Source: Candidatus Saganbacteria bacterium (lineage in GTDB: Bacteria; Margulisbacteria; WOR-1; XYC2-FULL-46-14; XYC2-FULL-37-10). Taken from it: a DNA stretch of 64,000 nt. The notes beneath the pieces are model-generated. The model worked only from the letters and a program-made list of their open reading frames with translations. It did not search any database and had not been told where the DNA came from. This document shows positions 7,274 through 31,592 of the stretch, one piece after another. Positions within the stretch are counted from its first letter, which is position 1; each line of letters starts with the position of its first letter. The stretch covers positions 37,725 to 101,724 of the forward strand of contig JACRPL010000021.1 in assembly GCA_016223245.1 (NCBI GenBank). Reading direction: 5' to 3'. A program made the position numbers and the translations under genes.

Positions 7274-7305
7274 AATGACAAATGTCTAATGACAAATGTC
7301 AAATT
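7274..7305. repeat. Dispersed oligo-repeat, GACAAATGTCAAAT family (intergenic copy)
   Basis: aatgacaaatgtctaatgacaaatgtcaaatt, directly after the ahcY stop. Confidence 0.75.
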
Positions 7306-7323
7306 ATTGAATAAATTATATTA

Positions 7324-13952: not shown

Positions 13953-16779
13953 ATTCCCTTAACTCTAAAATATATGGGCGTAATTTATTAAATGCAGCAA
14001 CTTCGATCTGTCTTATTCTTTCTCTTGTTAGACCAAGCATTTGACCGACTTCCTCGAACGTATGGTCGATATTTCCATTCAATCCAAATCTTTGTTCAAG
14101 CACAAATCTTTCTTTGCCCTTGAGCGATGTAACCAGTTCCTTTTTTAATGATTCACTTAACATCCTCTTCATTGTTTCAGCTTCAGGGTTTGGCGACGAT
14201 TGATCCGATACCCCACTTCCGAGTTCAGCATCTCCATCTAATTTGGGCGCATTTAAAGATAAAGTTTGTTGTGTTTGTTTTTTTATTCCTCTTAATTTTG
14301 CAAGAGGAATTTCGAGGTATGCCGCAATTTCCGACTCTTCCGGCTCCCGCTCGAAAGCGATCCGGAGTTCGCATTCCGCGCGATTTATTTTTTTCATGAT
14401 ATCTTGAGTATAGTTTGAAATCCATATCGTACGCCCTTGATTCCCAATTGCACGCAATATTTCTGCTTTGATCCAAATGCATCCATAATGGGCTAAAGTT
14501 CCTTTTTCCGGTTCGTACAATTCAACAGCCCTATATAGGCCAAGAATACCTTCTTGTACGAGGTCGGCAAAATCCAATCCTCTTCCAACATATTTCTTTG
14601 CCATCATGTAAACAAGTCTCATATTTTCGTTAACAGTGGCCCAATTTTTTCTGGAGAGGTCAGCGCTATTATCTACCGGCAGGTGCATTCGTTTTGTTGT
14701 ATTCCAATTTATTGAAGTCATTTCGTCTTCGGGGATCCCAAATTTATCGACCTTCATTCTTTTGAATATGGCCTCGTTCCCCGGAGTAGGGTGGCACAAG
14801 GCCCACCTTGTGAGATAGGATAAGTTCGGGTCGTTAAATAATACCTTTAAGGCCAGAAGCATTCTTTTTCCGGTGAATTTGTCAAAGTCGAGCAAGGAAG
14901 GCAGGAGCCTGAAAGCATTTTGGAAAAGATACGGATCGCTTCCGTAATATCCATGCGCCAATCCCGACAGAACTTCAAGGGCATAAGCAATGCTTGTCGA
15001 GTTGTGTGTTTCTTGATTGAAATACTGGGCAAGCGCCATTAAATTCTGTTCGCTTGTGTTGGACCTTGTTATGTTTTGGACGAGCCATTCATAGTATTCT
15101 TTTCTTTTTTTTAAGTGCGCTTCTCTTGTAAGGTCGGATGATTTTACTTCCATAGCTTTTTTCAATAGTTCAAAATCATAAGGATTCGCTCGATATGCTT
15201 CCGCGTATAATTCAAAAGCCTTATTAAAACCATCTGGATCAAGCAAACTTTTTCCCGCAGAATCAAAATGCACTGCCGCTTGTTTTGCTTTTTCACCCGA
15301 GATAGGCTTATCTACCGTTAGATCTTGTTCACCCGATCTTGCGCGAATGATAAGCTCGCACAATTCCCTTTCATCTCGGCTCATCCTCGCCGCGTCAGTA
15401 AAAAATAGCACTTCTTTCCCATCAAAAGCAAGAAGGGATAACTGCAATGGCTTCATTTCCCATGGGCACCTGTGCGTCACAAACATTAATACATCGCCGA
15501 ATTTGATCTTTTGTACGCTGTTCGCGACACTTGTACTGAATTGTTCGATCAGACGGTATCCGTGCAATTTATCTTTTTCAAGAAATGAGAAAGTAGTGTT
15601 TGCCAGTGTGAATTTTTCCCATGACCATTCCCAATTCAATACGAAAGGCAAAACGGTTCTGTTGTTTTTTTTATCTGTGTGGATAAGTGCGCAAACCTTA
15701 TTTCCAATCGCTTCAACTTCAAGCATAACGCCTGCTTGCAAGCCAAGTTTTTTGGCTATTTCTTCGCCAATTCGGATGACAGGTTTTTTACCGAAGCAGA
15801 TATAGTAGCTAGTTTTTCCCTTTACTGAGTCAGCGCAAACTTTAGTAAATATCTTTTCTTCAGCGTCTTTTAACTTATGTTTTTCTATTTGCTCTCCGCC
15901 AATCAAGATTGTAGTTTTTCCTTCTTTGTCATGTTTCCTTGTAATTGATAAAGGATTTTTACTGCTGTTTTCAGCAAATATCTGGTAGACGGAGCCATCT
16001 TTTATTCTTATCTTGAATACTTCGTTTTCTTTTCTTCGCCTCCCGGCAAAGAAAATCTTTATGCCAAATATTTCCGATGAAAATATCGAATCTTTTTTAT
16101 TTGAAACGACAAAATAATTTGTAATTCCTAGGTTTATAAAATAGAAGAGGAAGTTTTTTAGGTCGAAGTTAAGGTCGCCAATAAAACTATTATCTTTGGC
16201 ATTAAACATGAGCAGAATTATGTCTTCTCCGATTCTTTGCGGGGCAAGGAGAACTTCCGTTTTTTCGCGGATTCCCGTCGGATATGGGATCAGTTTGCCT
16301 TCGTGTTCAAACATAACTATCCCCAATTCGTCGGATTCGGTCCGAAGAAGTCCGGAAAATCCTATGCCAAGTTTTGCTTCATCCATGAAAGTCGTAAAAA
16401 AGTTATTTCGATCAGTTATTTCAGGCCTAGTTTTAAGTATTGCCCCATCATAGCCAAGAGCTACCTCCCAGAAGTTTATTCCTGGTTTTTTCTGTCCAAT
16501 CCCATTTACCGTATCTACAGGGATTCCGTTAACAACGAGAGGGCTCCCGTCGATCCTTAAAAATGCTCCATGGCGGTCAACAGGGATTGCAAGCTTTGCT
16601 TCGCCTGTTTTGTCAATAAACATTAAACCTGAACCAGAAGAAAATGAAACATTGCAGCCACCGCGCGCCAACATTTTGTTTGTCCCATTAGACCTCGAAA
16701 ATGAGAATTTCCAACCATTTACTCTAACTGCGGTTAACTGCGGGCTTGTATGAGGGGCTCTTGATCTTACAAGTTCCAT
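13942..16779 (-). CDS. Giant sigma-70-family protein: ~690-aa uncharacterised N-terminal region fused to sigma regions 2-4
   Basis: Single uninterrupted 945-aa ORF. The C-terminus has region 2 (DLVQEGILGLYRAVELYEPEKG...WIKAEILRAI), region 3, and region 4 HTH (TFEEVGQMLGLTRERIRQIEVAAFNKLR). The N-terminus has no family I recognise. Confidence 0.7.
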   Translation of the reverse strand: MELVRSRAPHTSPQLTAVRVNGWKFSFSRSNGTNKMLARGGCNVSFSSGSGLMFIDKTGEAKLAIPVDRHGAFLRIDGSPLVVNGIPVDTVNGIGQKKPGINFWEVALGYDGAILKTRPEITDRNNFFTTFMDEAKLGIGFSGLLRTESDELGIVMFEHEGKLIPYPTGIREKTEVLLAPQRIGEDIILLMFNAKDNSFIGDLNFDLKNFLFYFINLGITNYFVVSNKKDSIFSSEIFGIKIFFAGRRRKENEVFKIRIKDGSVYQIFAENSSKNPLSITRKHDKEGKTTILIGGEQIEKHKLKDAEEKIFTKVCADSVKGKTSYYICFGKKPVIRIGEEIAKKLGLQAGVMLEVEAIGNKVCALIHTDKKNNRTVLPFVLNWEWSWEKFTLANTTFSFLEKDKLHGYRLIEQFSTSVANSVQKIKFGDVLMFVTHRCPWEMKPLQLSLLAFDGKEVLFFTDAARMSRDERELCELIIRARSGEQDLTVDKPISGEKAKQAAVHFDSAGKSLLDPDGFNKAFELYAEAYRANPYDFELLKKAMEVKSSDLTREAHLKKRKEYYEWLVQNITRSNTSEQNLMALAQYFNQETHNSTSIAYALEVLSGLAHGYYGSDPYLFQNAFRLLPSLLDFDKFTGKRMLLALKVLFNDPNLSYLTRWALCHPTPGNEAIFKRMKVDKFGIPEDEMTSINWNTTKRMHLPVDNSADLSRKNWATVNENMRLVYMMAKKYVGRGLDFADLVQEGILGLYRAVELYEPEKGTLAHYGCIWIKAEILRAIGNQGRTIWISNYTQDIMKKINRAECELRIAFEREPEESEIAAYLEIPLAKLRGIKKQTQQTLSLNAPKLDGDAELGSGVSDQSSPNPEAETMKRMLSESLKKELVTSLKGKERFVLEQRFGLNGNIDHTFEEVGQMLGLTRERIRQIEVAAFNKLRPYILELREFIE

Positions 16780-16780
16780 G

Positions 16781-16791
16781 TATATATATCG
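16781..16791 (-). promoter_or_regulatory. CGATATATATA box immediately 5' of the giant-sigma ATG
   Basis: Minus strand reads tttCGATATATATAcATG. The same CGATATATAT core occurs at 18550, 29231 and 30848 in the sense orientation of the downstream genes. Confidence 0.5.
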
Positions 16792-16814
16792 AAAGAATTA
16801 GGGGCAGATTTCAG

Positions 16815-18188: not shown

Positions 18189-18532
18189 CAGTTAGAGGTT
18201 AAGACTTTTTCTTCTATATGTTTGATTCTTTCTTCATGGTTCTCAAGCTTGACTTCTTGTCGGCGGGATTGAGCATATGACATCTTTTGTTCAATGGACA
18301 GATCTTCAAGTTTTTTCATTATTTTATCTTGGCTTGTGAGGATATCGTTTTTTAATTCTGATTTTAAGCTATTAAGACCGGTTTGAAGTTCCTGTTTTGT
18401 GGCAAATATTGCAGAAAACTTAATAATAATGTTTTCAATGTCTTTTTTTGTGATTACCATATTAAGAATATTATATATATCCAGCTTATTAATTGCAACA
18501 TGAAATTTTAATTCTTCTTTCGCCTGCTGCAA
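18188..18532 (-). CDS. Hypothetical coiled-coil protein
   Basis: 114 aa, heptad-rich (ELQTGLNSLKSELKNDILTSQDKIMKKLEDL). Its TGA shares one base with the tldD ATG. Confidence 0.4.
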   Translation of the reverse strand: MQQAKEELKFHVAINKLDIYNILNMVITKKDIENIIIKFSAIFATKQELQTGLNSLKSELKNDILTSQDKIMKKLEDLSIEQKMSYAQSRRQEVKLENHEERIKHIEEKVLTSN

Positions 18533-18549
18533 TTATCTAGTGTTTTTGA

Positions 18550-18618
18550 CGATATATATGCGGGCCAAAAAGAAAAAGATAATCCATGGGAAAATGGGTT
18601 GATTTTTCAGAGGTCTCA
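18550..18618 (+). promoter_or_regulatory. Conserved leader element, copy X (upstream of the 252-aa orphan gene)
   Basis: cGATATATATGCGGGCCAAAAAGAAAAAGATAATCCATGGGAAAATGGGTTGATTTTTCAGAGGTCTCA. 67 of 68 nt are identical to the reverse complement of 29163-29230. Confidence 0.8.
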
Positions 18619-18634
18619 GTAAGAGATAAACAAA

Positions 18635-19393
18635 TTGATCAATACGAATTTATATATTAAACCCGGGCAGTTAAGACCCTTAGGGCTTGGAAAAGTTGAA
18701 CAGAGAATGGTACTAAATGTTGTAAATGGAATTGGGCGCCTCGAAAGCCGTTTTCTTTTGCTTTTCCATATATTTTATTTCAGCAAGGGCAAAATGGATG
18801 TTTGCCAGCATGCAGCTTTCGCGTTATCGCGAGTGCTTGGAGCAAGATATGATCTTCCGGTGTCCAACACTTTGAAGCCAAATATTGATCATATAGAAAT
18901 AGCAGTCGGGGTATTTGCTCCGCAGGATCTTTCGAGATCCTTTCATCAGACATTTTTAAAAGTGTTTCTTAAAGGCAAGACATTTTACCTCGATCCAACC
19001 CTTAAGTATTTAGAGGAGGATGTCCCATCGATCATTTTGCGCGAATATCCGGCTGGCGAATTCGACAGCCGCCTTCAAAATGAATTCATGATAGAACCGT
19101 ACGCTCCAAACCATCGTGCTTATGCGCACCGTGCCATAATTGCAAGCCAGTACCTTGATCTCGGAAGCCGTGCAAAATACGTTGAGGCATCGTTACGATT
19201 GCTGCATGATCCAAAACTGGTCGTTGATGTTGACCAACGCGAAGCGATATATTTCAGCCAGGATGACTGGACTAGACTTGATAGGATAATAAGAGCTATT
19301 GAACCAAAGGGAGGCCTTCCTTCTATTGAAACACAAGTTGAACAATTATCTGGTGATGAACTTTTGCGCTGGAGTGTATTTGGCGGCATTTAG
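18635..19393 (+). CDS. Hypothetical protein, possible transglutaminase-like/papain-like Cys-His-Asp fold
   Basis: 252 aa. Ordered candidate triad: C in KMDVCQHAAFALSRVLG, H in IDHIEIAVGVF, D in TFYLDPT. Start uncertain (TTG 18635 or ATG 18707). Confidence 0.45.
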   Translation: MINTNLYIKPGQLRPLGLGKVEQRMVLNVVNGIGRLESRFLLLFHIFYFSKGKMDVCQHAAFALSRVLGARYDLPVSNTLKPNIDHIEIAVGVFAPQDLSRSFHQTFLKVFLKGKTFYLDPTLKYLEEDVPSIILREYPAGEFDSRLQNEFMIEPYAPNHRAYAHRAIIASQYLDLGSRAKYVEASLRLLHDPKLVVDVDQREAIYFSQDDWTRLDRIIRAIEPKGGLPSIETQVEQLSGDELLRWSVFGGI

Positions 19394-19399: not shown

Positions 19400-22180
19400 T
19401 CACTTCGCTTCCGCCCAGTTCTCCCCAACTCCAATATCAATTTTTAGAGGGACAGAAAGCTTTAAGGCATTCTGCATTTCATCTTGGATGATCTTTTTAA
19501 CTTTATCGACTTCAGAATTCGGGACTTCGAAGACCAATTCGTCGTGGACCTGCAGGATCATTTGACATTTGACACTTGACATTTGACATTTGCGATGGAT
19601 ATTTACCATCGCTAACTTTATCATATCGGCTGCGGTTCCTTGGACTGGAGTATTTATAGCCGTTCTCTCGGCAAAACCTCTCATTCCTTGATTGGGAGAA
19701 TTAATATCGGGTAGGGGGCGTTTTCGCCCAAGCATCGTTGTTACAAATCCTGTATCTTTAGCATCTTTAATAGTTTTTTCTATAAAAGCCTTTATGCCGG
19801 GATATCTTTTGAAATATTTTTCAATAAATTGCTCGGCTTCCGTTCTTTTGATCTTTAAACTTTTAGCCAAGCCAAAACCGGATATCCCGTAAATGATCCC
19901 AAAATTAACTGTTTTAGCGCTTGATCTCATTTCTTTTGTAACTTTATCAAGAGGTACATTGAAGATATCGGCAGCCGTTGCAGTATGGATATCTTCATCC
20001 AATTTGAAAGCCTCAATAAATTTTTCATCTTGTGAAAGATGCGCGAGAACCCTTAATTCAATTTGAGAATAATCGGCCGCAATTATCTTATATCCTTTAT
20101 TTTGCGGGACAAATGCTTCTCTTACTCTTTTTCCAAGTTCGGATTTTACGGGAATATTCTGCATATTTGGATTTGAGCTCGATAACCTGCCTGTCGCAGT
20201 GATCGTTTGGTTGAAATTTGCATGAACGCGTCCGGTTTCTTTATTTATTAGTTCCGGCAAAGTATCAACGTAGGTTGATTTGAGTTTGTTCAATCCTCGA
20301 TATTCCAGAAGTTTTTCAGCGATCTCAAATTGGCCGGACAATTCTTCCAATACTTCCGCATCTGTTGAAGCGCCTGTTTTTGTTTTCTTAATTATGGGCA
20401 GCTTTAGTTTCTCAAATAAAACTACAGCCAATTGCTTTGGAGAGTTCAAATTGAAAACTTCTCCGCATATGGCAAAGATGTGCCGCTCAAGATCTTTCAT
20501 TGCAAGTTCGATCTCTTGGCTAAGTTTCTTTAAGTATTTGGCATCGATGAAAACACCTGTCTCTTCCATTTTGATCAACACATCAAGCAATGGCATCTCA
20601 ATTTTGTTAAAGACATCCTCCATATTTTCCGACTTGAGAGTTTTCTCAAAGACTTCTTTTAACCCGCGAGTCACATCGGCATCCGAACATGCGTAATCTT
20701 TCGCGACATCTATCGGAACTGTTGCGAAGTTGCCTTCAGACCCAAGTTCATCGAAGTTTATCATTTCTGTTCGGCCAAGATACTGCGCGCCGACTTTCTT
20801 TAAACTATACCTGCCGATAGTCGGGTCGATCAAATATGCGGCTACCATGGTGTCGAAATAGGGTGACGATACTTCAATATCGTATTTTTTCATCACCTCG
20901 ACGTCGTACTTTAAATTATGTCCGATCTTGAGCTTGGTTTTATCTTCAAAAATCGGTTTTAGCGCAGTTAATGCCATTTTAATATTAACTTGCGGCTGAA
21001 CGCCGCGGTTAATGCTTTTGGAACCGCGAGCCGTGCCTACCGGCAGGCAGGGTTCACTCGCAGGTTCCACCTTGTGCCCAAAAGGCAAATAAAAAGCTTC
21101 GCTTTCGTCAATTGAAAAAGATATACCTATAAGATTTGCTTTGAAAGTATTGAGGCTGTCTGTCTCGGTATCAAAGGCAAAAGACTCGCATTCTTTTAAT
21201 TTATGGATTAGGTTTTGATAATGATTATCATTATCAATTAGCTTGAAGTTGAATTTCGAAATTTCTTTCCTTTTTGTCTCAACCTTGTCGAATAGATTGG
21301 GGGTTTGATGCTCCTTGTATTTGTTTATCAGAGTCTTGAATTCCATTCGTTCGAAGAATTTAATGACTTTTTCCCAGTCCGGGGTTTGAGTTGATGTGAA
21401 ATCGGTTTCGAGTGGTACGTCAGTTATAATCGTTACCAGCATTTTGCTCAAATGCGCTTTTTCTTGTTCGTTCAATAATGTTTCGCGAAGCTTTGGCTTT
21501 TCGATATCTTTGGCATGAGCTAATAAATTATCAAGTGTATGATATTTTTTTAATAGTTCAGCGGCTGTTTTATCTCCGATCCCGGGCATTCCCGGGACAT
21601 TGTCAGATGTATCGCCTTTTAAAGCTTTAAAATCAATTAATTGGTTTGGTTTGAGGCCATATCTTTCCTCAACTGCTTTTTCGTCATAGATAACTATGTC
21701 GGAGATCCCTTTCCTGGTAGTCATTACTTTTATTTTCTCTGTTACAAGCTGTAATGCGTCGCTGTCGCCTGTTACTATTTCTACTTCAAAGCCTTCTTTT
21801 TCTGCCTTCTTGGCCAAAGTTCCTATGAGATCGTCGGCTTCAAAGCCTACTAATTCATAGATCGGGATATTTAGGTCTTCGACCAGTTCTTTTATATACG
21901 GAAATTGAGGATGGAGGGTGGGAGGCGCTTTATCTCTTGTTCCCTTGTATTCTTTGTATTTTATATGGCGGAAGGTCGGTTCTTTCCTGTCGAAAGCGAC
22001 TGCAATATAATCCGGTTTTTCCTCGACAAGCTTTAGGATCATCGAAGTGAAGCCATATATGGCATTAGTTACTATGCCTTCGGAGTTCTTCATGGTGTCT
22101 GGAAGCGCATAAAAAGCGCGGTAGGCAAGCGAGTTGCCGTCGATCAGGATTGCTTTAGGGTTGTATAAAGATTTGACCAA
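19400..22180 (-). CDS. polA: DNA polymerase I
   Basis: 926 aa with 5'-nuclease (ILIDGNSLAYRAFYA), 3'-5' exonuclease and polymerase domains (RRSAKTVNFGIIYG-type motif B, QVHDELVFE motif C). The TTG start abuts the HEPN stop. Confidence 0.95.
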   Translation of the reverse strand: MVKSLYNPKAILIDGNSLAYRAFYALPDTMKNSEGIVTNAIYGFTSMILKLVEEKPDYIAVAFDRKEPTFRHIKYKEYKGTRDKAPPTLHPQFPYIKELVEDLNIPIYELVGFEADDLIGTLAKKAEKEGFEVEIVTGDSDALQLVTEKIKVMTTRKGISDIVIYDEKAVEERYGLKPNQLIDFKALKGDTSDNVPGMPGIGDKTAAELLKKYHTLDNLLAHAKDIEKPKLRETLLNEQEKAHLSKMLVTIITDVPLETDFTSTQTPDWEKVIKFFERMEFKTLINKYKEHQTPNLFDKVETKRKEISKFNFKLIDNDNHYQNLIHKLKECESFAFDTETDSLNTFKANLIGISFSIDESEAFYLPFGHKVEPASEPCLPVGTARGSKSINRGVQPQVNIKMALTALKPIFEDKTKLKIGHNLKYDVEVMKKYDIEVSSPYFDTMVAAYLIDPTIGRYSLKKVGAQYLGRTEMINFDELGSEGNFATVPIDVAKDYACSDADVTRGLKEVFEKTLKSENMEDVFNKIEMPLLDVLIKMEETGVFIDAKYLKKLSQEIELAMKDLERHIFAICGEVFNLNSPKQLAVVLFEKLKLPIIKKTKTGASTDAEVLEELSGQFEIAEKLLEYRGLNKLKSTYVDTLPELINKETGRVHANFNQTITATGRLSSSNPNMQNIPVKSELGKRVREAFVPQNKGYKIIAADYSQIELRVLAHLSQDEKFIEAFKLDEDIHTATAADIFNVPLDKVTKEMRSSAKTVNFGIIYGISGFGLAKSLKIKRTEAEQFIEKYFKRYPGIKAFIEKTIKDAKDTGFVTTMLGRKRPLPDINSPNQGMRGFAERTAINTPVQGTAADMIKLAMVNIHRKCQMSSVKCQMILQVHDELVFEVPNSEVDKVKKIIQDEMQNALKLSVPLKIDIGVGENWAEAK
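19559..19592. repeat. Dispersed oligo-repeat, GACAAATGTCAAAT family, in frame inside polA
   Basis: catttgacatttgacacttgacatttgacatttg encodes (minus strand) KCQMSSVKCQM, directly before the conserved ILQVHDELVFE motif. Confidence 0.8.
21020..21068. repeat. CCTGCC/GGCAGG-type palindromic element in frame inside polA
   Basis: ggaaccgcgag-ccg-tgcct-accggc-aggca-gggttca-ctcgc-a-ggttcc, three nested stems. Encodes VEPASEPCLPVGTARGSKS between the exonuclease motifs. Confidence 0.7.
22095..22159. repeat. 65-bp direct repeat, copy 1 (codons 2-23 of the original polA, now in the live gene)
   Basis: 60 of 65 nt are identical to 23100-23164. Confidence 0.9.
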
Positions 22181-22582
22181 TTATAAAAACTCTTTAATTC
22201 GTTTTTTTAATAACAGGGCTAATTTCTTTGTTGTCTTAATAACTTTTTTTAATTCTTCCGAGGTAATGTCTTCTCCTGGATACCTAAAACCAACGGCATA
22301 GGGATTTAATATCTTGAATTCAGAATATATTCCATACAAAAATGGGTCTTTTGGCTGGAGCAGTTTTAATAATTCAATTAGGTCATGTGTTTTAGGGAAT
22401 AATATCTCATGGCTGAGAAGTAATGTTTTTAGGTATTTTTCGATTGCTTGCTGGCAATGGAAAGCAATGATATAGAATGTTTTCTTTTTGCTTTTGTTTT
22501 TATTTAATGTTAACGCGGCTTCTAAGTCTCCCTCAGCCTTATCCTCCCACTCAATAACCAAGGATTTACTTGGATGAATCAT
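22181..22582 (-). CDS. HEPN-domain toxin (HepT-like) of an MNT/HEPN module
   Basis: 133 aa all-helical protein with QQAIEKYLK, KTHDL and RYPG motifs typical of HEPN. Overlaps the MNT gene by 17 nt. Confidence 0.75.
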   Translation of the reverse strand: MIHPSKSLVIEWEDKAEGDLEAALTLNKNKSKKKTFYIIAFHCQQAIEKYLKTLLLSHEILFPKTHDLIELLKLLQPKDPFLYGIYSEFKILNPYAVGFRYPGEDITSEELKKVIKTTKKLALLLKKRIKEFL

Positions 22583-22931
22583 ATAAGACTTTGCCCTTAT
22601 TTATTATTTCATGATAAAAAGGATCTCCCATTTTAAGTCGTTTTTTTACTTCACTAGGAGTTTTGATTAAGATGTCCATTGGAAAAAGATGCTCGATGTG
22701 TCGAGTTGCCCATGAATAACGCTTCATACCTTTCAACCTTGTATCTTTTATGAACAATAAATCAACATCGCTATCTTTGTTGGGATTTCCATAAGCATAT
22801 GATCCAAAAAGAATAACCTTTTCCGGTTTTATACTCTCCGCCGCAGTTTTAATTACTTTTGTTAGCTGCCGCTTAAAAAGTCGTTGCTTTGTCATAGTTG
22901 TTTGCCTTGTGAATATTATAGCATGAAACAT
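22566..22931 (-). CDS. Minimal nucleotidyltransferase antitoxin (MntA-like)
   Basis: GSYAYGNPNKDSDVDLLF is the classic GSx10DxD MNT motif. The likely true start is Met13 (22895), downstream of a TGcTATAAT box. Confidence 0.8.
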   Translation of the reverse strand: MFHAIIFTRQTTMTKQRLFKRQLTKVIKTAAESIKPEKVILFGSYAYGNPNKDSDVDLLFIKDTRLKGMKRYSWATRHIEHLFPMDILIKTPSEVKKRLKMGDPFYHEIINKGKVLYDSSK

Positions 22932-23025: not shown

Positions 23026-23151
23026 ATGTCAGAAATTTTAGGTTCCAGTTTTCACAAACCTGATCCGAGGAAATCGGCCAACTTTAAAGAGACTGCTGTG
23101 TGTCTGGAAGCGCGTAAAAAGCGAGATAGGCAAGCGAGTTGCCGTCGATAA
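23026..23151 (+). CDS. Small ORF (41 aa) with a consensus Shine-Dalgarno, antisense to the polA fossil
   Basis: AGGAGGTG lies 7 nt before the ATG. Encodes MSEILGSSFHKPDPRKSANFKETAVCLEARKKRDRQASCRR. Hand-translated. Coding status uncertain. Confidence 0.25.
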   Translation: MSEILGSSFHKPDPRKSANFKETAVCLEARKKRDRQASCRR

Positions 23152-23167
23152 GAATTGCTTTAGGCAT
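23084..23167 (-). pseudogene. polA: Fossil 5' end of polA (27 codons then stop), left behind by the cassette insertion
   Basis: Minus strand ATG CCT AAA GCA ATT... gives MPKAILIDGNSLAYLAFYALPDTQQSL*. Located 25 nt downstream of the tsf stop. Confidence 0.7.
23100..23164. repeat. 65-bp direct repeat, copy 2 (in the fossil polA start)
   Basis: Five differences from 22095-22159. Four are synonymous in the polA frame. Confidence 0.9.
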
Positions 23168-23192: not shown

Positions 23193-23795
23193 TTACGACT
23201 TCTCGCCTAGTTGGTATCTTGTAAATCGCCTTACAACGATGTTTTCGCCGATCTTTGCGGATAGTTCGCCTAAAAGGTCCTTTATCTTGACTTTTGGATC
23301 CTTGATAAAAGCCTGGTCCATTAAGCATACTTCTTCGTAAAACTTCTCGAGGCGTCCGATCATGATCTTTTCCATGGCGGCCGCAGGCTTCTTTTCCGTT
23401 TCTGCCTGTTTGAGCAATACTTCTTTCTCATGTTCTATCGAGGCTTCGGGAACTTCGCTTCTTGTGATATATTGCGGATTCTGCGCGGCTATTTGCATCG
23501 AGACGTCTTTTGCGAAATTATGGAAATCGGAATTCTTGGCGACGAAATCCGTTTCGCAATTGAGTTCGAGCAATACTCCAAGTTTTCCACCCATATGTAT
23601 GTAAGAGTTGATAATCCCTTGTGCGGCAACACGTTTCGCGCGTTTGGCAACAGATGCCAAACCTTTTTGCCTCAAAAGATCGACAGCTTGATCAATGTTG
23701 CCTTTGGTCTCGACCAAAGCTTTCTTGCAATCCATCATCCCGCAGCCTGTCTTTTCCCTTAGCTGTACGATTATTTCAGTTGTGATGTCGCCCAT
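23193..23795 (-). CDS. tsf: Elongation factor Ts (short form)
   Basis: UBA-like N-terminus LREKTGCGMMDCKKALVE and the EF-Ts core. 200 aa. Confidence 0.93.
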   Translation of the reverse strand: MGDITTEIIVQLREKTGCGMMDCKKALVETKGNIDQAVDLLRQKGLASVAKRAKRVAAQGIINSYIHMGGKLGVLLELNCETDFVAKNSDFHNFAKDVSMQIAAQNPQYITRSEVPEASIEHEKEVLLKQAETEKKPAAAMEKIMIGRLEKFYEEVCLMDQAFIKDPKVKIKDLLGELSAKIGENIVVRRFTRYQLGEKS

Positions 23796-24665
23796 TTAAA
23801 ATCCAACCCTTTCTTCGGTTTCTTTTTCTTTGACCAATACTTTAGGAGCAAGTTCCGCCAGCCTTTCTTCTTCGCTTAACATCATAGCTTCTTCCATGGT
23901 GGTTTCTTCTGTTTCGGCAGGCTTTGCTTCTCCTTCTTCCGCGGGAACGGCAATTTCTATAGTTCTTTCTTCGATCGGTTTGCCCATTTCACGGCCTGCA
24001 ATAACTGCTTCAGCGACGATTGCTGTCAATAACTTGATCGAGCGGATAGCGTCGTCATTTGCCGGAATAGGGAAGTCGACAACATCAGGATCGCAGTTTG
24101 TATCGACTACAGCGACAACTGGGATGTCTAGCCTTTTTGCTTCGGCGATCGCCGTTGCTTCTTTTTGCGAGTCTACGATAAATATGACGCTTGGAGGATT
24201 GACCATTTCACGGATACCGCCAAGGCCTCGGACTAGCTTCCCGTATTCTCGTTCAATACCTGCAACTTCTTTTTTCGGTAACTTTTCATAAGTGCCGTCA
24301 GTCTTCATTTTTTCAATTTCTTTCATACGGACGATGTTCTTCTTTAATGTTTTGAAATTGGTGAGTGTTCCGCCAAGCCATCTGTCCCTGACATAGAACA
24401 TGCCGCAGCGTTTTGCTTCTTCTTCGATAGCGTCCTGGGCTTGTTTCTTTGTTCCTACAAATAAAACAGTACCGTTGTCTTTTACCGCGTTCTTGATGAA
24501 ATCACATGCTTTTTCGATCAACGGAATGGTCTTGTGAAGGTCGATAACATGGATGTTATTTCTCGACGAATAAATATACTTTCCCATTTTTGGATTCCAA
24601 CGTTTACTTTGGTGCCCGAAATGAACCCCCGCTTCGAGCAACTCTTTCATGGTTACTACTGGCAT
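23796..24665 (-). CDS. rpsB: 30S ribosomal protein S2 with an acidic C-terminal tail
   Basis: [19 protein letters not shown] and the rest of the S2 fold. Abuts tsf. Confidence 0.95.
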
Positions 24666-24911
24666 TGCTTCCTCCTTAAATTATTAGGTCTATAGTTTTT
24701 CAAGCAGACAAACAATAATTTTATCACAGAATTGGCTTTTTTGCCAATGAAATTTGGACGGGATTGGACGATAATAACATAGAGAGCTCCGAAAAATTTG
24801 CAAGATAAAAAATATAGCAATTAATATGGTTGTTTTTTAAATCTGCCTGCCTTGGCTCGATCTTATAGCGTTCTCCTTTCATCACGATTTCATATTCCTC
24901 AAACCTGCGCT

Positions 24912-25229: not shown

Positions 25230-25832
25230 TTATTTAACTAAAGCCATTCTGGACCAAAATGCAACGGCTCGCGCATATGCTTTAAGATCAATTGGCACAG
25301 GATTCGCAACTCCTCCAAAGTCTATTCCCAAACCATTTCTTAAAATCGTAATCGGCAGCATCGGTTCTTCTTTGCAGCCTGTAATGCCATTAATTGAAAT
25401 GATTCCCCAATTGGAATCAGCTGGATCAATTGCCTCGCCTTCAGTTTTAAGTTCTTCACTTGTATAAAGAATGATATCTAAATACGGCGCCTTGGGAGGG
25501 ACAACATCAGCTGAATCGAACCATCTTGTAAGTACTGGAAGCTCTTCCGTCTTGCGCGCAACATAACCCGTTTTAATAAATTTTTCATTGGCAGCCGTTA
25601 TTTCAACGACCCCGGCTCTTGCATCCGTAAAGTTCTCAAGAAATAAATGCGCGCAAAAAGAGACATAACCTGGCGTTAGCGATTTTCCTTGAGCCAATTG
25701 GTTCGCTTTATTCGTAAAAGCATTAGAATCTATATTACCAATTTTTGTTCCAGGAAATTCCGGGTTAAAATGCCTTCCTGCAGCAAACTGGGTCATTCCA
25801 ATTTTTATCATATTTCCAGCGGCAACATCCAT
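25230..25832 (-). CDS. Hypothetical 200-aa protein (DUF3228-like, from memory), translationally coupled to the 1091-aa gene
   Basis: ATG lies 2 nt after the upstream stop, with AGGAGG embedded in the upstream gene's 3' end. No catalytic motif recognised. Confidence 0.5.
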   Translation of the reverse strand: MDVAAGNMIKIGMTQFAAGRHFNPEFPGTKIGNIDSNAFTNKANQLAQGKSLTPGYVSFCAHLFLENFTDARAGVVEITAANEKFIKTGYVARKTEELPVLTRWFDSADVVPPKAPYLDIILYTSEELKTEGEAIDPADSNWGIISINGITGCKEEPMLPITILRNGLGIDFGGVANPVPIDLKAYARAVAFWSRMALVK

Positions 25833-25834
25833 TT

Positions 25835-28800
25835 TTATCTCCTCCTTGATAATTGCGACAACAAGTATGTTCCCATTTGTTCTTTTGCCCTAAGGATCCT
25901 AGGGTTCGTCCCTAGTTCTGCATCAGCCAACGTTTCCCCTTCTTTCCCTGGGATATCCGAAAAATAACCCATCATTGAAACTGACAAAGATGGCTTAGCG
26001 CCAAGACCTCTAACAAGCGGCCCCATTTCAAGTTCAACAGAAGTTGCCTTTCTTCCCATAAGGTCCGCAAGAAAAGCATCATGTTCTTGTAAAGGAGAAT
26101 CTACATAGCCCGCATGTGTTGTCAGGACAAATCTTATGGCACTATCTCCTGCTTTACTATCTGTGCCTCCAGCCAAATCAACAACTTCTTGCCTTTGAGC
26201 TAAAGCATAGGAAACAACATCATTGACAAAGCCATTAGCCTCTCCTTTTTCTTCAAGCATCGTACTTGGGACAAATAGATCCCCGACATTTATTTCTGTT
26301 TGATTTTGGCCCGCTCCGGCGATAAAACCGCCATTTCCAAAAAACGTCACATTTTCGACATTCTCTTCGGCAACTGCTTGCCCTAAATAACCTGATAAGC
26401 TCCCAAAAGGAATTGTTACCATAAGGAATGGCGCTTTCCCCGGCAATCTTATTAAACTTGCCTGGTAAACATCATTAGGCACGCGGGCTTTCATGCTTTC
26501 CGGTTTCAACTTCTCTGGCAATATAAAAGGAGGGTTTCTATTCATCCCAAGCTTCGCATAAACGCCTTCAAGCTTGTCTCTAAGCGCCAATAGCCTTGCA
26601 GCAAGGTTAGGATTAAGCATTATTTCTTCAGGATCTAGTGAAAAAGCCGCCGTCAAATTCGTTTTATCATCAAAAATTTGTCCAATGATTTTTGGCGTAA
26701 GCACTCTGATCTCAGCTTGAATATTTGGGATAGCTTGTTCTATCTCTTCATTTTGAGCAGTTTCATAGCTTTCAATTAAAATAATACCAAATTCCGCAAG
26801 AAGTTTTAAGCATTGTTTTATTCTCTTAATAAATACATTTTTCATCTCTTGCGCCGGTATTTTTGGATTGTTTTTTGTAAACGAGCCATAATCAAGGTTT
26901 GCCGCCAATTCCTCCAATTTCATATTAACTGCTCGGCTTAGATCTGCCTCAACTTCATTAAGCAATTCTTCGCCTTTCAACCCTGGTTTAAGGAAAGCAG
27001 CTAATACTCTTGCGGCATTTATCCTCTCTGCTAAAATATAGCTTATCGTTCCCCCTGGACCAACAACTACCATTTTTGGGAATTTGCCATTGTTTTTGCT
27101 TTTGGTTGCGGCAATCAAATTTTTGGCGTCCACCATATAATCTTCAGAATAGACATGATGGTATATTTTTTCAACGGATAATCCCGCATAAGTTAGATAC
27201 AGCCTCATATGCATCAATTTTGTTTCGCCAAGAATATTAACAACAATAAATTGATTAGTCCCTTTTACCCTATACCAATGCTGCTTAACGCCGTCTTCTG
27301 TTCTTTCTACCGCAAGCCGCTCCAATTGTGAACGTTTATCGGTGATATATTGCATGCTTGTAGAAAGCGGGCCATGATGCAATTCAATTGAAACAAATTT
27401 ACCTTCATCCAATAGGTCCAATGCGGCTTTTGGGATTCTGGGGATAAGATATTCAGGCAAATTCAATGAATGCCTGCGATACATTGCGACCCCTTGGCGC
27501 ACGTTTTCGATAACAGGCATTCTGCCGATAGCAGATACAATATCGTCAATTGAAAGCGATGTTTTTCTTTGTTCTGCCGGAAGCTCTTTTGGGAACATAG
27601 GAGATCCTCCCGCCTTTGAAAATCCGCCCCAACCCTTTCGCAGCTCCGAAAAGCCCAGTGTTGCTCTCTTTTTCTTTTCCTCTTGGCCTAACTTTTCCCA
27701 TAAATTTGTAAGGTCTATCTCGACTTCAAGCGAAGAATTCGGGTCGATCCCGACCATATATTCATATCCCATATTGCATTCAGCGTCATATGAGATGGCA
27801 AGATGTATCTGGTCCTTCGCGGCCCTTTTTCGGTTATACCCTTCCATGAACGCATATATCCCCCTGCGACTGACAACTTTTTTCCATTCAACATCCCCTC
27901 TCCAAGGATGTTTCACAATAATGGTATTTCCTCGAATTTCAACGCTTGTGTTGTTTGAATCATTTATCGCTTGAGCTAAATATTCGACTTCTCTTTCCAA
28001 TACTTCCCGCGCTCCTCTGTAAATCGCCAAATAACCATTAGGGAGGGTCGCTTCATGTTCTAGGCTATCAAGTATGCGGCAAAGATCTGAAAATACATTA
28101 TCTCTTAACACGGGGAATGCGGCTGCGCAACTTGTATGATAATCTTTGATCTCGAGGAATTTACCCCTTTCCAAAGAATACATTTCTTCAAGCAATAGCA
28201 TAAGTTTTCCGCCATCGGAACGGACGGATCCTTTCTGAAGATCAGATAGGTCCGAAGCTTCTAGTAATATTTTTTTCTGCCCTTCGCTTAAATAAAGCGC
28301 CAATCCAGGATTACATAACAGCCACTGTTCAATAAACGCATAACAATCGGAATAAACTTTAATTTTTCGGCCGTTTAAGGATTCCCTTTGAAGTGTTTCA
28401 AGTTTTTCGGTTGCTTCCATTATTTCTTTTGTTTGCGTAGTATCTTTATGCGGCAGGAAAAGGAAATCCTTTAATTCTGCCAATCGCTTCTGAATTGTTT
28501 CTCCGTTCATCCCGCGATTCTTTAATATAGCAGCAACCGGTTCACCAATATTTTTATCAAAATCAATATTATATCGTAAGGTAACCATAGACATTAATAT
28601 CCCTTGTTCAAGATTATCCGCAATTATTGGGACTAATTTATCAATATCGCTTGTGTCTACAAATAAAGCTTCTGGTTTTGAGTCAATGATCGTGCGCTGT
28701 CCGGCAAGAGATTGAGAAGGTTGGCTAACAGCCATTGCGCATGCAGCAGGGTTCGAAACGCCTGAAAGATCCAATGAATATACTGCTCCACAGAAAAATA

Positions 28801-29110
28801 CATCAATATTATTTCGCCCAAAATCCCTGCGATCGACCAAAACGACTGCAGTTTTCGATCTGCCGATTCTCATTGTTACAAGGCTAAGGTTTCGCAATTC
28901 TAATTCTTGAGGCGATAAATTTCCTTGTAATATGCTAGCGCGAAGATCTGTTTCAAGTGCAACAGTTGCTAATGCAGCTTCGCTAAAAGCATGTTTTTTT
29001 AATGCCAGCAAAGCACTTGCGCTATGCATTAAGGGAGCCAAATGTGATTTTTGCATTAGGGCTAAAGGGGTCAATTTTTGTGCGGTTGGGCCAACTACTT
29101 GAATATTCAC
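25835..29110 (-). CDS. 1091-aa orphan protein with a nucleoside phosphorylase/nucleosidase-like C-terminal domain
   Basis: Uninterrupted ORF with GGAGG 9 nt before the GTG start. The last ~250 aa show PNP/UDP/MTAN-like motif order (FLMVTIPFG, FFGNGGFIAG, VGDLFVPS, SVELEMGP, GYFSDIP). The rest is unassigned. Confidence 0.6.
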   Translation of the reverse strand: MNIQVVGPTAQKLTPLALMQKSHLAPLMHSASALLALKKHAFSEAALATVALETDLRASILQGNLSPQELELRNLSLVTMRIGRSKTAVVLVDRRDFGRNNIDVFFCGAVYSLDLSGVSNPAACAMAVSQPSQSLAGQRTIIDSKPEALFVDTSDIDKLVPIIADNLEQGILMSMVTLRYNIDFDKNIGEPVAAILKNRGMNGETIQKRLAELKDFLFLPHKDTTQTKEIMEATEKLETLQRESLNGRKIKVYSDCYAFIEQWLLCNPGLALYLSEGQKKILLEASDLSDLQKGSVRSDGGKLMLLLEEMYSLERGKFLEIKDYHTSCAAAFPVLRDNVFSDLCRILDSLEHEATLPNGYLAIYRGAREVLEREVEYLAQAINDSNNTSVEIRGNTIIVKHPWRGDVEWKKVVSRRGIYAFMEGYNRKRAAKDQIHLAISYDAECNMGYEYMVGIDPNSSLEVEIDLTNLWEKLGQEEKKKRATLGFSELRKGWGGFSKAGGSPMFPKELPAEQRKTSLSIDDIVSAIGRMPVIENVRQGVAMYRRHSLNLPEYLIPRIPKAALDLLDEGKFVSIELHHGPLSTSMQYITDKRSQLERLAVERTEDGVKQHWYRVKGTNQFIVVNILGETKLMHMRLYLTYAGLSVEKIYHHVYSEDYMVDAKNLIAATKSKNNGKFPKMVVVGPGGTISYILAERINAARVLAAFLKPGLKGEELLNEVEADLSRAVNMKLEELAANLDYGSFTKNNPKIPAQEMKNVFIKRIKQCLKLLAEFGIILIESYETAQNEEIEQAIPNIQAEIRVLTPKIIGQIFDDKTNLTAAFSLDPEEIMLNPNLAARLLALRDKLEGVYAKLGMNRNPPFILPEKLKPESMKARVPNDVYQASLIRLPGKAPFLMVTIPFGSLSGYLGQAVAEENVENVTFFGNGGFIAGAGQNQTEINVGDLFVPSTMLEEKGEANGFVNDVVSYALAQRQEVVDLAGGTDSKAGDSAIRFVLTTHAGYVDSPLQEHDAFLADLMGRKATSVELEMGPLVRGLGAKPSLSVSMMGYFSDIPGKEGETLADAELGTNPRILRAKEQMGTYLLSQLSRRR

Positions 29111-29162
29111 CTGGTATTTTCCTCCATTGTTTTCCTAGCTATCATGATCATCTCGCTTACTA

Positions 29163-29231
29163 TGAGACCTCTGAAAAATCAACCCATTTTCCCATGGATT
29201 ATCTTTTTCTCTTTGGCCCGCATATATATCG
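29163..29231 (-). promoter_or_regulatory. Conserved leader element, copy Y (upstream of the 1091-aa gene)
   Basis: The reverse complement matches 18551-18618 at 67 of 68 nt. Weaker similarity continues about 15 nt further toward the gene. Confidence 0.8.
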
Positions 29232-29263
29232 ACAGCCCCCACCGAAGATTTCACTATGGAACA

Positions 29264-29297
29264 AACTATTTCCCAACTATTTTCCCAACTATTTCAA
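29264..29297. repeat. Three tandem 11-12-nt direct repeats (AACTATTT(T)CCC)
   Basis: aactatttccc aactattttccc aactatttcaa. They straddle the stop of the ARH gene, upstream of leader copy Y. A related ccaaccaactatttt occurs at 30875-30889. Confidence 0.65.
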
Positions 29298-30878
29298 ATG
29301 GATACGAGATAATTGATCTGCATAAGCGCTGATTTCTCTGTGTTCAATAAGCCCTTCGATCCATTCATTTGGTATTACTGTTAATCCATTATGTGCTGCG
29401 CTTATTGCTCCAGCTAATCCTGCAATGCTATCGGAATCTCCTTGCGTATTGACCCCGGCAATAATTGTTCTTCTAAAATCCGGTAAGCTTTTCAAAAAGC
29501 AATAAATTGCCGATGGAACCACTCCAAGCGCTTTCATTCCAGTTTTGACTTTTTTCCCATCAATGTTGCTTGGGATTTGGTTTAAACCATCTTCTGTAGA
29601 TACTTGCATCAATGACGGCAATCTTCTTATTTCAAATGCCATTTTTGGACTTTCATTTTCTATATATTGCGCCGTTCTTTCAACAATTCCCTCTACTGAA
29701 TCCGGAAGCCGGCTTAAACGACCTTGATTAATAAGATATGCGATCGCCAAAGCGCCGCCGAGCGCTTCCTTGCCTGTTTTTGTGATCAATGTTACAGCTC
29801 CTACGCTTTTTCTTAGCAATGCAAGGTCATCAATAATTAAGCCCAAGGGCACAACTGCGGTTGCCGGCCCACAGCCGTCGCTTTGGTTTGCCGCTAACCG
29901 CCAATTTAGCCCCGCATATAACCTTCTATAAGATGTAAGAGTACTATTAGAATAACCGACATTCCTGGTCAAGCCCATGTCAAGCTTTAAACCAAAAGCC
30001 GCAAAAATTCCGGCCATGTCGTTTGGATCGATCTTTCCAGTGCGAATGATCGACTTGGCAACCATAAGGGCCATTTGGGTATCATCCGTATAATCGCCGG
30101 GAAATAATGGGCGCACAGGATCTTTCAAAAAACCGTCTACATATCCTATCCGTCTGATTTCTTCAAGCGATGAAAATTCTACTGGCGCTCCCATCGCATC
30201 GCCTATTGCTTCGCCAAATAAAACAGCTCGATGAATATCGAAAGAAGTTGGACTCGACAATTCGACATTCACCTGCGCTTTTGGATAAAGAAAAGAAAAG
30301 GACGTTTCTCTTATCGACAAAGCGGCATCCTCTTCAAACTCCTTTATTAAATTCAAATCACCGAATCTGCCCAACATGTGTACCGCAAGATTCTTTATTG
30401 CTTCAGGGCCTTGAAGTCCTGTTTTTATTAAGGGTACGATTCCGGAAACAATTCTTTGCATTTGCATTATTGAAGCAAGCATCCAGTTTTCGGATTTTTG
30501 CGTTCGCAGCAATCTCCCGAGTTCAGCAATATATTTATGGGGATCAGACGCTCCCAAGGAAAGGGCGGAAAACCAGCGGACTTGGCCATCGGGATCTTGA
30601 AGCATTGTTTTCAATGTTGCGGCCGCTTGTTCCTGCTCAACCCAAGCCATCATTTTTTTTGATGTTTCCCTTCGGACTCTTGAGCTTGGATCAGAGCTCA
30701 AAGGTAATATTGCCGCAAGATCTTGTGCCGCTCGAATAGAAGAAAGCTTCGCCTCAATAATAGGATTAGCTCTATAATAAGTTCTTAGCATTGCGCTTTT
30801 TGCGCAAGATGCATATATTTGCATGTGTTTGGCCTCACATATATATCGGCCCCCCTCATCGAAAATTTCATTTTCCAA
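29289..30878 (-). CDS. HEAT-repeat / ADP-ribosylglycohydrolase fusion protein
   Basis: N-terminal HEAT-like repeats (DPSSRVRRE, DPDGQVRWFSALSLG). ARH domain motifs GDAMGAPVEF, DYTDDTQMAL, GDSDSIAGLAGAISAA. The real start is probably ATG 30824 (GAGG Shine-Dalgarno) rather than TTG 30878. Confidence 0.8.
   Translation of the reverse strand: MENEIFDEGGRYICEAKHMQIYASCAKSAMLRTYYRANPIIEAKLSSIRAAQDLAAILPLSSDPSSRVRRETSKKMMAWVEQEQAAATLKTMLQDPDGQVRWFSALSLGASDPHKYIAELGRLLRTQKSENWMLASIMQMQRIVSGIVPLIKTGLQGPEAIKNLAVHMLGRFGDLNLIKEFEEDAALSIRETSFSFLYPKAQVNVELSSPTSFDIHRAVLFGEAIGDAMGAPVEFSSLEEIRRIGYVDGFLKDPVRPLFPGDYTDDTQMALMVAKSIIRTGKIDPNDMAGIFAAFGLKLDMGLTRNVGYSNSTLTSYRRLYAGLNWRLAANQSDGCGPATAVVPLGLIIDDLALLRKSVGAVTLITKTGKEALGGALAIAYLINQGRLSRLPDSVEGIVERTAQYIENESPKMAFEIRRLPSLMQVSTEDGLNQIPSNIDGKKVKTGMKALGVVPSAIYCFLKSLPDFRRTIIAGVNTQGDSDSIAGLAGAISAAHNGLTVIPNEWIEGLIEHREISAYADQLSRIHLK
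30828..30864 (-). promoter_or_regulatory. Partial third copy (Z) of the leader 5' module, at the 5' end of the ARH gene
   Basis: Minus strand tttcgatgaggggggcCGATATATATGTGAGGCCAAA aligns with copy Y tcttcggtgggggctgtCGATATATATGCGGGCCAAA. Confidence 0.6.
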
Positions 30879-30938
30879 CCAACTATTTTGGAAAATATAA
30901 GTGTTGACTCTTTAACCTTCCCCGCCTAAAATCAAATC

Positions 30939-31592
30939 ATGCCAACGATCGCGCAAAAAATAGCCGATATAAAACAACAAATATCTTCAACTATCACTCT
31001 GCTCGCTGTTGTGAAAAACGTCTCAACTGAAAAGATCTTTGAAGCGCTGGATGCCGGGATAGATACTATCGGCGAAAATCGCATCCAAGAAGCATCGGAG
31101 CGAATCCAGGCGATCAGGCAAAAATATCCAAATATCAAAATCCATTTCATCGGCCATCTGCAATCCAATAAGATAAATCAAGCTCTTCAAATGTTTGATG
31201 TTATAGAGTCTGTCGATAGTTTTGAATTGGCAGAAGCAATAAATAAGAGGGCGGAAAAGCCAGTCGAAATTTTTGTTGAAGTTAATACTTCGGGTGAACA
31301 AAGCAAAAATGGCGTCGATCTTAAAGATGCGATCGACCTTATCGATAAAATTTCAACTTTTAAGAATTTAAGGCTTACAGGCCTAATGACAATTGGCGCA
31401 AACAGTTCCGATGAAGAAAAAGTCCGGGCATGTTTTAGAAAACTTCGAGAAATTAGAGACGAATCAAGCAAAAAGGGGTATACTAATATCGTCCATCTTT
31501 CCATGGGAATGTCGCACGACTTTCCTATAGCAATTGAAGAAGGTTCTGATATAATACGGATAGGAACAGGGATCTTTGGAAATAGGAGGTAA
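30939..31592 (+). CDS. yggS: YggS-family pyridoxal-phosphate homeostasis protein
   Basis: 217 aa alanine-racemase-N fold. AVVKNV (PLP Lys), HFIGHLQSNK and SMGMSHDF motifs. Confidence 0.88.
   Translation: MPTIAQKIADIKQQISSTITLLAVVKNVSTEKIFEALDAGIDTIGENRIQEASERIQAIRQKYPNIKIHFIGHLQSNKINQALQMFDVIESVDSFELAEAINKRAEKPVEIFVEVNTSGEQSKNGVDLKDAIDLIDKISTFKNLRLTGLMTIGANSSDEEKVRACFRKLREIRDESSKKGYTNIVHLSMGMSHDFPIAIEEGSDIIRIGTGIFGNRR

Follow-up and report, generated by a model that had tools for sequence, protein, structure and literature searches.

A Conserved Gene Pair Encoding a HEAT-Repeat ADP-Ribosylglycohydrolase and a Predicted Nucleosidase-Like Protein behind a Putative Alternative Sigma Factor Promoter in a Candidatus Saganbacteria Contig

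We analyzed a stretch of 64,000 nucleotides (nt; the window) of contig JACRPL010000021.1 from a Candidatus Saganbacteria bacterium (assembly GCA_016223245.1), in which three minus-strand genes, here called g1, g2, and g3, lie side by side (Table 1). We tentatively propose, at somewhat less than an even chance, that g1 and g2 encode a co-regulated enzyme pair that acts on ribose C1 bonds and, controlled by an alternative sigma factor, dismantles or resets an adenine-nucleotide or ADP-ribose-derived molecule. A first-pass annotation, made from the sequence alone, had placed the three genes between rpsB-tsf and yggS. The open reading frame (ORF) map agrees with its coordinates, and every peptide motif that it quoted was found in the translations of g1 and g2. 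The junction sequence also agrees with its description: the ATG of g3 lies 2 nt past the TAA of g2, with AGGAGG within the end of g2 (...AGGAGGAGATAAAAATG...). The GC content of the locus is native.

The protein encoded by g1 had been described as HEAT-like repeats fused to a complete ADP-ribosylglycohydrolase (ARH) domain, and Pfam bears this out. ADP_ribosyl_GH (PF03747) matched over profile positions 2-286 of 287 (170.7 bits against a gathering cut-off of 26.2; E 7e-50), and HEAT_2 matched with 31.2 bits (E 2.7e-07). In alignments, the HEAT region was kept in the homologues of contigs L007, L010, and L016. The motifs DYTDDTQ and GDSDSIAG are both present in g1 and invariant across three lineages, as are residues D276, D277, T278, D492, D494, and S495 (alignment numbering, +11 relative to numbering from the TTG). 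We take the DDT and DxD[ST] residues to form the binuclear metal site, as in ARH3 and DraG. The relatives of g1 in the Protein Data Bank (PDB) are MJ1187, DraG, and ARH3. The top NCBIfam matches were DraG (68.1 bits against a cut-off of 337) and Tri1 (63.4 against 490), and g1 is below the equivalog cut-off for both. Translation of g1 most likely starts at the ATG at 30824 (29289-30824, 511 residues) and not at the TTG at 30878, because the alignment with homologues begins only at that methionine and because the 54 nt upstream of it are the shared promoter element described below.

Direct searches with g2 returned no match in Pfam, NCBIfam, PADLOC, PHROG, or a PDB sequence search. The first-pass annotation had assigned its C-terminus to the PNP/UDP/MTAN-type enzymes, and three independent lines, from profiles and from a structural model, support this assignment. 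First, the distant homologues P0026 and P0028 matched PNP_UDP_1 with 22.5 and 23.1 bits, just below the cut-off of 25.1, and these matches coincide exactly with the second segment that they share with g2. Second, a profile of eight C-terminal domains, compared with the whole PDB, matched NP-I enzymes only (AMP nucleosidase 1ybf, E 0.006; DeoD-type purine nucleoside phosphorylases [PNPs], E 0.009). Third, an AlphaFold2 model of residues 787-1091, built on the eight-sequence alignment (predicted local distance difference test [pLDDT] score 69.6), gave 228 Foldseek matches in the PDB at E<=1e-3 (best E ~1e-6, probability 1.00). Each of the best 50 of these 228 was a uridine or a purine nucleoside phosphorylase, and the alignments covered ~225 of 245 target residues. 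We concluded that the C-terminus of g2 has a predicted PNP/MTAN-type (NP-I) fold.

The residues of this domain are informative on its chemistry. E1028 and D1052 are invariant in eight of eight sequences and align with the ribose-binding Glu (VEME) and the catalytic Asp (SD), respectively, of 1ybf and DeoD. The phosphate-binding Arg of the DeoD IRVG motif, before the GxxG strand, corresponds to the invariant F923 of g2, and AMP nucleosidase 1ybf likewise has no such Arg. Since the phosphate-binding Arg is replaced by Phe, and AMP nucleosidase lacks it as well, we infer that the domain is an N-glycosidase of the hydrolase type, similar to AMP nucleosidase or MTAN, and not a phosphorylase, and that it is probably active. 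Neither Pfam nor NCBIfam matched the regulatory domain AMNp_N in g2.

The remainder of g2 is unevenly conserved. Identity to homologues is 21-22% over residues 1-225, 34-40% over 226-430, 34-63% over 431-700, 21-32% over 701-880, and 37-56% over 881-1091. The central region carries the family-specific segment WGGxxxAGGSP, and H436, S440, D442, Y451, N458, W494-G496, and G501-P504 are invariant. The first-pass annotation had recognized no domain in the first ~800 residues. A profile of residues 1-430 matched nothing in the PDB. The profile of the central domain gave a single match, a marginal one (E 0.0024), to a Mur-ligase central domain in its P-loop region; we did not build on a Mur-ligase-like identity. 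A full-length AlphaFold2 model of g2 was confident only at residues ~560-920, and yielded no Foldseek match at E<=1e-3. Four distant proteins share residues ~540-667 and ~850-1066 of g2, in preserved order. The central alpha/beta domain (ELHHGP ... NILGETKL) is common to g2 and to the giant multi-enzyme proteins P0026-P0029, in which the central and PNP units are fused to an APH kinase, a DHH phosphoesterase, a PRK/uridine kinase, or CYTH. These fusion partners, and the HD and DUF6687 neighbors described below, all act on nucleotides.

The family is rare. A full HMMER scan with g2 found nine relatives among 1.84 billion representative proteins; the close ones, P0022, P0023, and P0024, are 31-49% identical to g2, and one further relative is a fragment. 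A word-indexed search of 5.8 billion proteins recovered only g2 itself. Scans of genomes, metagenomes, and viruses added no more than a single fragment and a further contig from one of the lineages already represented, and no g2 was found in the viral contigs scanned. Full-length HEAT-ARH proteins are just as rare as g2; after P0035 (34% identity), the matches were ordinary ARH proteins of 305 residues.

g1 and g2 are linked across lineages. g1 is followed directly by g2 in four of the four testable lineages (the window, the L007/L008/L009/L013 group, L010, and L017), at identities of 30-63% and in differing neighborhoods. In the L007 group, the HEAT-ARH protein is 45-46% identical to g1 over its whole length, and the g2 homologue is 40-44% identical to g2. 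Contigs L011/L012 and L016 end too early to show adjacency, and the sample comprises only about five lineages, several of them as contig fragments. Co-occurrence held for the pair and not for all three genes: DUF3228, the family of g3, was not found in the other g1-g2 loci (the L007 group and L010), and the window holds no homologue of the accessory genes found there. Since DUF3228 is missing from the other loci, the conserved core consists of two genes, g1 and g2, and not three. The g3 gene is a lineage-specific add-on that is co-translated with g2. DUF6687 (PF20392), which has a faint DHH-like match, occurs at 17278-18435 of L007, at 7301-8470 of L010, and at the C-terminus of P0024. Present in other lineages as a separate gene or fused to g2, it is apparently an accessory part of the g1-g2 module.

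A second link between the two genes lies in their upstream regions. Positions 29212-29271 and 30829-30888, upstream of g2 and g1, are 75% identical over 60 nt, and 29163-29234, upstream of g2, is 97% identical over 72 nt to 18547-18618, upstream of an orphan ORF (18635-19393). The sequence GNCGATATATATG occurs exactly at three sites, namely upstream of g1, g2, and this ORF, and the upstream regions share the core TGAAAT-N14-GnCGATATATATG. The pattern TGMAAT-N16-CGATRW was found five times in the window against 0.14 expected, and none of 100 shuffles reached five. This agrees with the cis-element previously noted for g1, g2, and two other orphan genes. ORF 18635-19393 had no Pfam, PADLOC, or PHROG match and is probably co-regulated with g1 and g2. 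A hydrophobic ORF of 95 residues (9640-9927) may be another member of the regulon.

The element is a predicted promoter of an alternative, sigma-28-like class. The sigma-28 consensus is TAAAGTTT-n11-GCCGATAA (PMC2859248). Against its -35 TAAA(GTTT) and -10 GCCGATAA, g1 offers GAAATTTT-n11-GCCGATAT and g2 offers GAAATCTT-n11-GTCGATAT. These sites match promoters of the FliA/SigD/WhiG type in the n11 spacing and in the CGAT-type -10. In contrast to the consensus, the -35 element begins with G instead of T. The neighboring rpsB and yggS carry canonical TTGnCn-N17/18-TAAAAT promoters instead. No FliA gene or flagellar genes are visible within the window.

The pattern is also kept in other lineages. 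It precedes, in exact form, the methyltransferase gene and g2 in L007/L013, the methyltransferase and the DUF6687-like gene in L010, and g2 in L017, and the HEAT-ARH gene of L016 is preceded by the one-base variant TGAAAT-N14-TTAGATATATATGTGAG. All ten exact-pattern sites in the window, L007, L010, and L017 are correctly oriented and lie 6-150 nt upstream of starts; CGAT is invariant at every one, and is AGAT in L016. The exact pattern stood before no further gene in the 23-kb loci of the other lineages. Because the promoter pattern is conserved across these lineages, which range from 37 to 53% GC, the module is predicted to be part of an alternative-sigma regulon that has been kept among them.

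A candidate for the cognate factor is encoded in the window itself. The motif precedes a gene for a sigma-70-family protein of 945 residues, with regions 2-4 at residues 716-934 and an N-terminus of 700 residues without a known domain. We infer that this protein is the cognate, self-regulated factor for the TGAAAT-N16-CGATAT sites. The motif lies only 6 nt before the ATG, which suggests that the gene is nearly leaderless as well as self-regulated.

Two further observations concern these sequences. The same hairpin (AAAAAGAUAAUCCAUGGGAAAAUGGGUUGAUUUUU) is predicted in both copies of the 72-nt leader; we rejected the leader as a structured RNA because there was no Rfam match and the folding z-scores (-1.8 and -0.7) were not significant. 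A near-match to the promoter, TGAAAT-N13-GACGATAA, is present at 24748-24775 on the plus strand, in the 560-nt intergenic region between rpsB and g3, and points to the 3' end of g3. Since no convincing ORF was found downstream, it could drive a small or antisense RNA.

Table 1. Features of the g1-g2-g3 locus, other genes of the window, and g1-g2 loci of other lineages
Feature	Position	Strand	Description
g1	29289-30878 (mechanical ORF, TTG start)	minus	HEAT-repeat and ADP-ribosylglycohydrolase protein
HEAT repeats of g1	30495-30704	minus	HEAT_2; residues 59-128 in TTG numbering
ADP-ribosylglycohydrolase domain of g1	29367-30224	minus	with DDT and DSDS metal-binding motifs
g1 promoter, sigma-28-like (predicted)	30843-30870	minus	TGAAATTTT-N11-GCCGATAT
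g2	25835-29110	minus	1091 residues, multidomain; GTG start, GGAGG 10 nt upstream
Most conserved central region of g2	27011-27820	minus	residues 431-700
PNP/UDP-type (NP-I fold) nucleosidase-like domain of g2 (predicted)	25838-26470	minus	residues 881-1091
g2-g3 promoter, sigma-28-like (predicted)	29226-29253	minus	TGAAATCTT-N11-GTCGATAT
g2 -10 box and ~60-nt 5' leader	29163-29234	minus	97% identical to the leader of ORF 18635
g3	25230-25832	minus	DUF3228 protein, translationally coupled to g2
tsf and rpsB	23193-24665		flanking genes on one side of g1-g2-g3
YggS-type gene	30939-31592		flank on the other side; Ala_racemase_N; followed by sepF and proC
Sigma-70-family gene	13942-16779	minus	945 residues; promoter motif at 16786-16813, 6 nt before ATG
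ORF 18635-19393 region	18528-19393	plus	TGCAAT-N16-CGATAT; shared leader 18547-18618; orphan, up to 252 residues
Hydrophobic ORF, 95 residues	9640-9927	minus	GTG start, GGAGG upstream; promoter motif at 9955-9982
Loci L007/L008/L009/L013			S-adenosylmethionine (SAM) methyltransferase, HEAT-ARH, g2 homologue, unknown proteins of 655 and 221 residues, HD protein, DUF6687
Locus L010			methyltransferase, DUF6687-like, HEAT-ARH, g2 homologue fused to DUF6687, HD protein
Locus L017			HEAT-ARH fragment (63% identical to g1), then g2 N-terminus (30%, E 3e-47)

We propose that the module operates as follows. g1 and g2-g3 would each be transcribed from their own promoter of a single sigma-28-like class, and this shared class would switch them on together with a few other genes, including the nearby sigma factor gene. 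The g2 protein comprises a fast-evolving N-terminal region, the conserved central alpha/beta domain, and the predicted NP-I-fold domain. The last of these would most likely hydrolyze the N-glycosidic bond of an adenine nucleotide or an ADP-ribose-type compound, a reaction that we liken to those of AMP nucleosidase, MTAN, and the ATP nucleosidases. The g1 protein would act on an ADP-ribosylated protein or small molecule by cutting it at the ribose C1'' linkage, and the two enzymes would jointly dismantle or reset a nucleotide or an ADP-ribose-derived molecule under the control of the sigma factor.

Several points weigh against this proposal. g2 itself is under every Pfam threshold and had no PNP_UDP_1 (PF01048) match at E<=1. 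Its first ~540 residues have no relatives of known fold that profiles or Foldseek detected, and confidence in the AlphaFold2 models is medium to low (pLDDT 58 for full-length g2 and 70 for the C-terminus). Regions 2-4 of the 945-residue sigma factor are of the RpoD type (185 bits) rather than the FliA type (84 bits), so that its assignment to the promoter stays tentative. Moreover, the rarity of the pair and its variable accessory genes would suit a conflict system equally well.

In such a system, which we regard as possible but doubtful, the N-terminus of g2 would sense infection, and its PNP-like domain would destroy ATP, dATP, or NAD-derived molecules; depletion would lead to abortive infection, the HEAT-ARH protein would restrain or reset the response, and accessory genes would vary as they do in defense islands. 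PNP-type ATP nucleosidases are proven immune effectors (bioRxiv 10.1101/2023.01.24.525353), which provides a precedent. The core pair is accompanied by shuffled accessory genes (DUF3228, methyltransferase, HD, and DUF6687), and the distribution of g2 is very sparse. The N-terminus of g2 evolves rapidly, with 21-22% identity against 49-57% in catalytic parts, and in L017, g2 is only 30% identical where the neighboring ARH protein is 63% identical. Toxin-antitoxin cassettes are also nearby (HEPN/nucleotidyltransferase at 22181-22931 and AbiEii at 45350), and the neighboring sigma factor matches the MzaA model with 164 bits; however, this match spans generic sigma regions only. The possibility of a defense module had been raised by the first-pass annotation and found no direct support here. 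PADLOC 2.0 gave no match beyond noise for g2, g3, their homologues, or their neighbors and only weak HEAT matches for g1, and the ORF map showed no kinase/receiver or CD-NTase gene and no sensor or signaling partner of a known type. The module has no flanking mobile-element genes, its GC content is native, and g2 has no copy in the viral contigs. A composite transposon around the L007 module was considered but rejected, since the AAA_14 genes on either side share only 24% identity. A specialized promoter kept across lineages of such different GC content would be unusual for horizontally moving defense genes, and its conservation points instead to membership of a sigma factor regulon, as in the proposal that we prefer.

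A different relationship between the two proteins, that of writer and eraser, is improbable in our estimation. g2 would contain, at residues 431-545, an unrecognized NAD-using ADP-ribosyltransferase (ART) or other toxic activity, which the cognate ARH protein g1 would reverse. Characterized ARH proteins pair with ARTs, the best NCBIfam matches of g1 are DraG and Tri1, and the strict adjacency of g1 and g2 and the many invariant residues in the g2-specific segment would also fit. The ARH-like antitoxin DarG3 has been reported (PMC13069673) and serves as a precedent. However, Pfam, NCBIfam, PADLOC, the PDB profile, and Foldseek identified no ART family, motif, or fold in g2. The region at residues 431-545 is poorly modeled, as is the whole of residues 1-545, which shows no recognizable fold. 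Furthermore, g1 precedes g2 and has its own promoter, an arrangement unlike that of a tight toxin-antitoxin pair. The co-regulated enzyme pair remains the reading that we favor.

The third gene adds a separate line of inquiry. g3, whose family the first-pass annotation had not recognized, encodes a DUF3228 protein (PF11539; 183.1 bits against a cut-off of 25, E 6e-54, profile positions 2-193 of 194), the structural relatives of which, 2pd0 and 4fbd (E 1e-33), have been solved and are functionally uncharacterized. DUF3228 was found in 29 viral contigs of IMG/VR (L018-L046), some of them large (up to 488 kb), and PHROGs v4 does not include it, although the family is frequent in viral contigs. 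In 8 of the 29 viral loci, DUF3228 has an RNA ligase gene (PF09414, E 6e-23) no more than 4 kb away. Two unrelated contexts place a CCA-adding-type nucleotidyltransferase beside it, and in one of these a metallophosphatase and an AAA_33 kinase are present as well. In one contig, the DUF3228 gene overlaps the gene for the RNA-binding protein YhbY, with RNase T nearby, and elsewhere it adjoins a gene for an RF-1-domain protein. Contigs L001, L003, and L014 were among those examined. The family is thus distributed independently of the g1-g2 module, and this company hints at a function in RNA repair or at RNA ends. A Chlamydiae origin, considered on the strength of DUF3228 and the sigma-28-like promoter, was abandoned because evidence for it was lacking. 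ARH3-type enzymes can strip ADP-ribose off RNA ends. We give little credence to the view that the module processes RNA ends or NAD caps, with the ARH protein removing ADP-ribose from RNA ends and the nucleosidase degrading the released nucleotide: this ARH3-type activity and the RNA-related neighbors of DUF3228 (RNA ligase, CCA-adding enzyme, YhbY, RNase T, and RF-1-domain protein) speak for it, but no RNA-binding domain was detected in g1 or g2, and DUF3228 cannot define the core function because it is missing from the other g1-g2 loci.

Other features of the window deserve brief mention. A duplicate of the first 65 nt of polA, a relic start at 23100-23164, directly follows tsf and is 92% identical to 22095-22159. 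The live polA now begins at a TTG, and a toxin-antitoxin pair of HEPN (22181-22582) and nucleotidyltransferase (22566-22931) genes separates it from the relic. The pair looks like a cassette that entered the 5' end of polA and duplicated its target. A gene for an AbiEii-type nucleotidyltransferase toxin at 45350-46030 on the plus strand represents a further toxin-antitoxin or abortive-infection element. Copies of a short repeat of the TGACAAATGTCAAAT type are located at 7273-7307, 19557-19591, and 47264-47316, one of them within the polA coding region.

PNP-fold nucleosidases and ADP-ribose hydrolases play central roles in bacterial immunity and in NAD/ADP-ribose signaling, and a conserved pair of the two has not been described. 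The first-pass annotation had known of no system of this composition, and PADLOC, too, contains no matching model. The folds are already known, whereas we found no description of the pairing of g1 and g2, the 1091-residue architecture, or the conserved promoter in the libraries and literature that we searched. g2 would represent a new multidomain family with a predicted nucleotide N-glycosidase domain and ~880 residues of unknown fold. The promoter class, which stays with the module across lineages, offers a handle on the regulator and on the remaining members of the regulon. The present results also provide contextual leads for two DUFs, DUF3228 with RNA repair and DUF6687 with the g1-g2 module; a literature search on either family found no paper. 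Should the module deplete nucleotides in response to a signal, it may represent a new architecture among nucleotide-depleting effectors; if not, it may belong to an undescribed route of nucleotide catabolism in little-studied bacteria. A bolder version, which we consider rather unlikely, is that the 945-residue protein is a sensor-type sigma factor that, upon a signal, turns on a dedicated dismantling machine of HEAT-ARH and nucleosidase, an undescribed regulon. If this regulon acts as an immune or dormancy switch triggered by the sigma factor, it would form a new class of nucleotide-centered system and would give DUF3228, known from large viruses, apicomplexans, and bacteria, its first functional context, as an RNA-end or ADP-ribose-end processing enzyme.

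Several known systems resemble parts of the module. In DraT/DraG, Tre1/Tri1, and DarHTG (DarG3), an ARH-family hydrolase is encoded beside its partner, as is g1. Unlike these systems, the neighbor of g1 has no detectable ART, and g1 itself has an N-terminal HEAT domain. The proteins of Pfam DUF6909 and P0026-P0029 resemble g2 in having a central alpha/beta domain followed by a PNP-like domain, but P0026-P0029 are only 17-25% identical to g2, carry the APH, DHH, PRK, or CYTH fusions, and are not paired with an ARH protein. Amn (1ybf and 2guw) gave the best PDB profile match for g2 and was also among the structural matches. Both are NP-I enzymes of the hydrolase type, predicted as such in g2, that have no phosphorylase Arg and carry an N-terminal domain, regulatory in Amn, before the catalytic domain. 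However, g2 is more than twice as long, has neither AMNp_N nor an above-threshold PNP_UDP_1 match, and its E value of 0.006 is marginal. The g2 locus also differs from those of the ATP nucleosidase immune effectors Cap17 (CBASS) and DtcC (Detocs) in that g2 is not accompanied by a CD-NTase, SAVED, histidine kinase, or receiver partner, and g2 has a different N-terminal architecture of 880 residues and is paired with an ARH enzyme. In common with g2, Cap17 and DtcC carry a PNP/MTAN-type domain at the C-terminus of a larger protein, and the reaction predicted for g2, cleavage of the base-ribose bond of a nucleotide, is of their kind.

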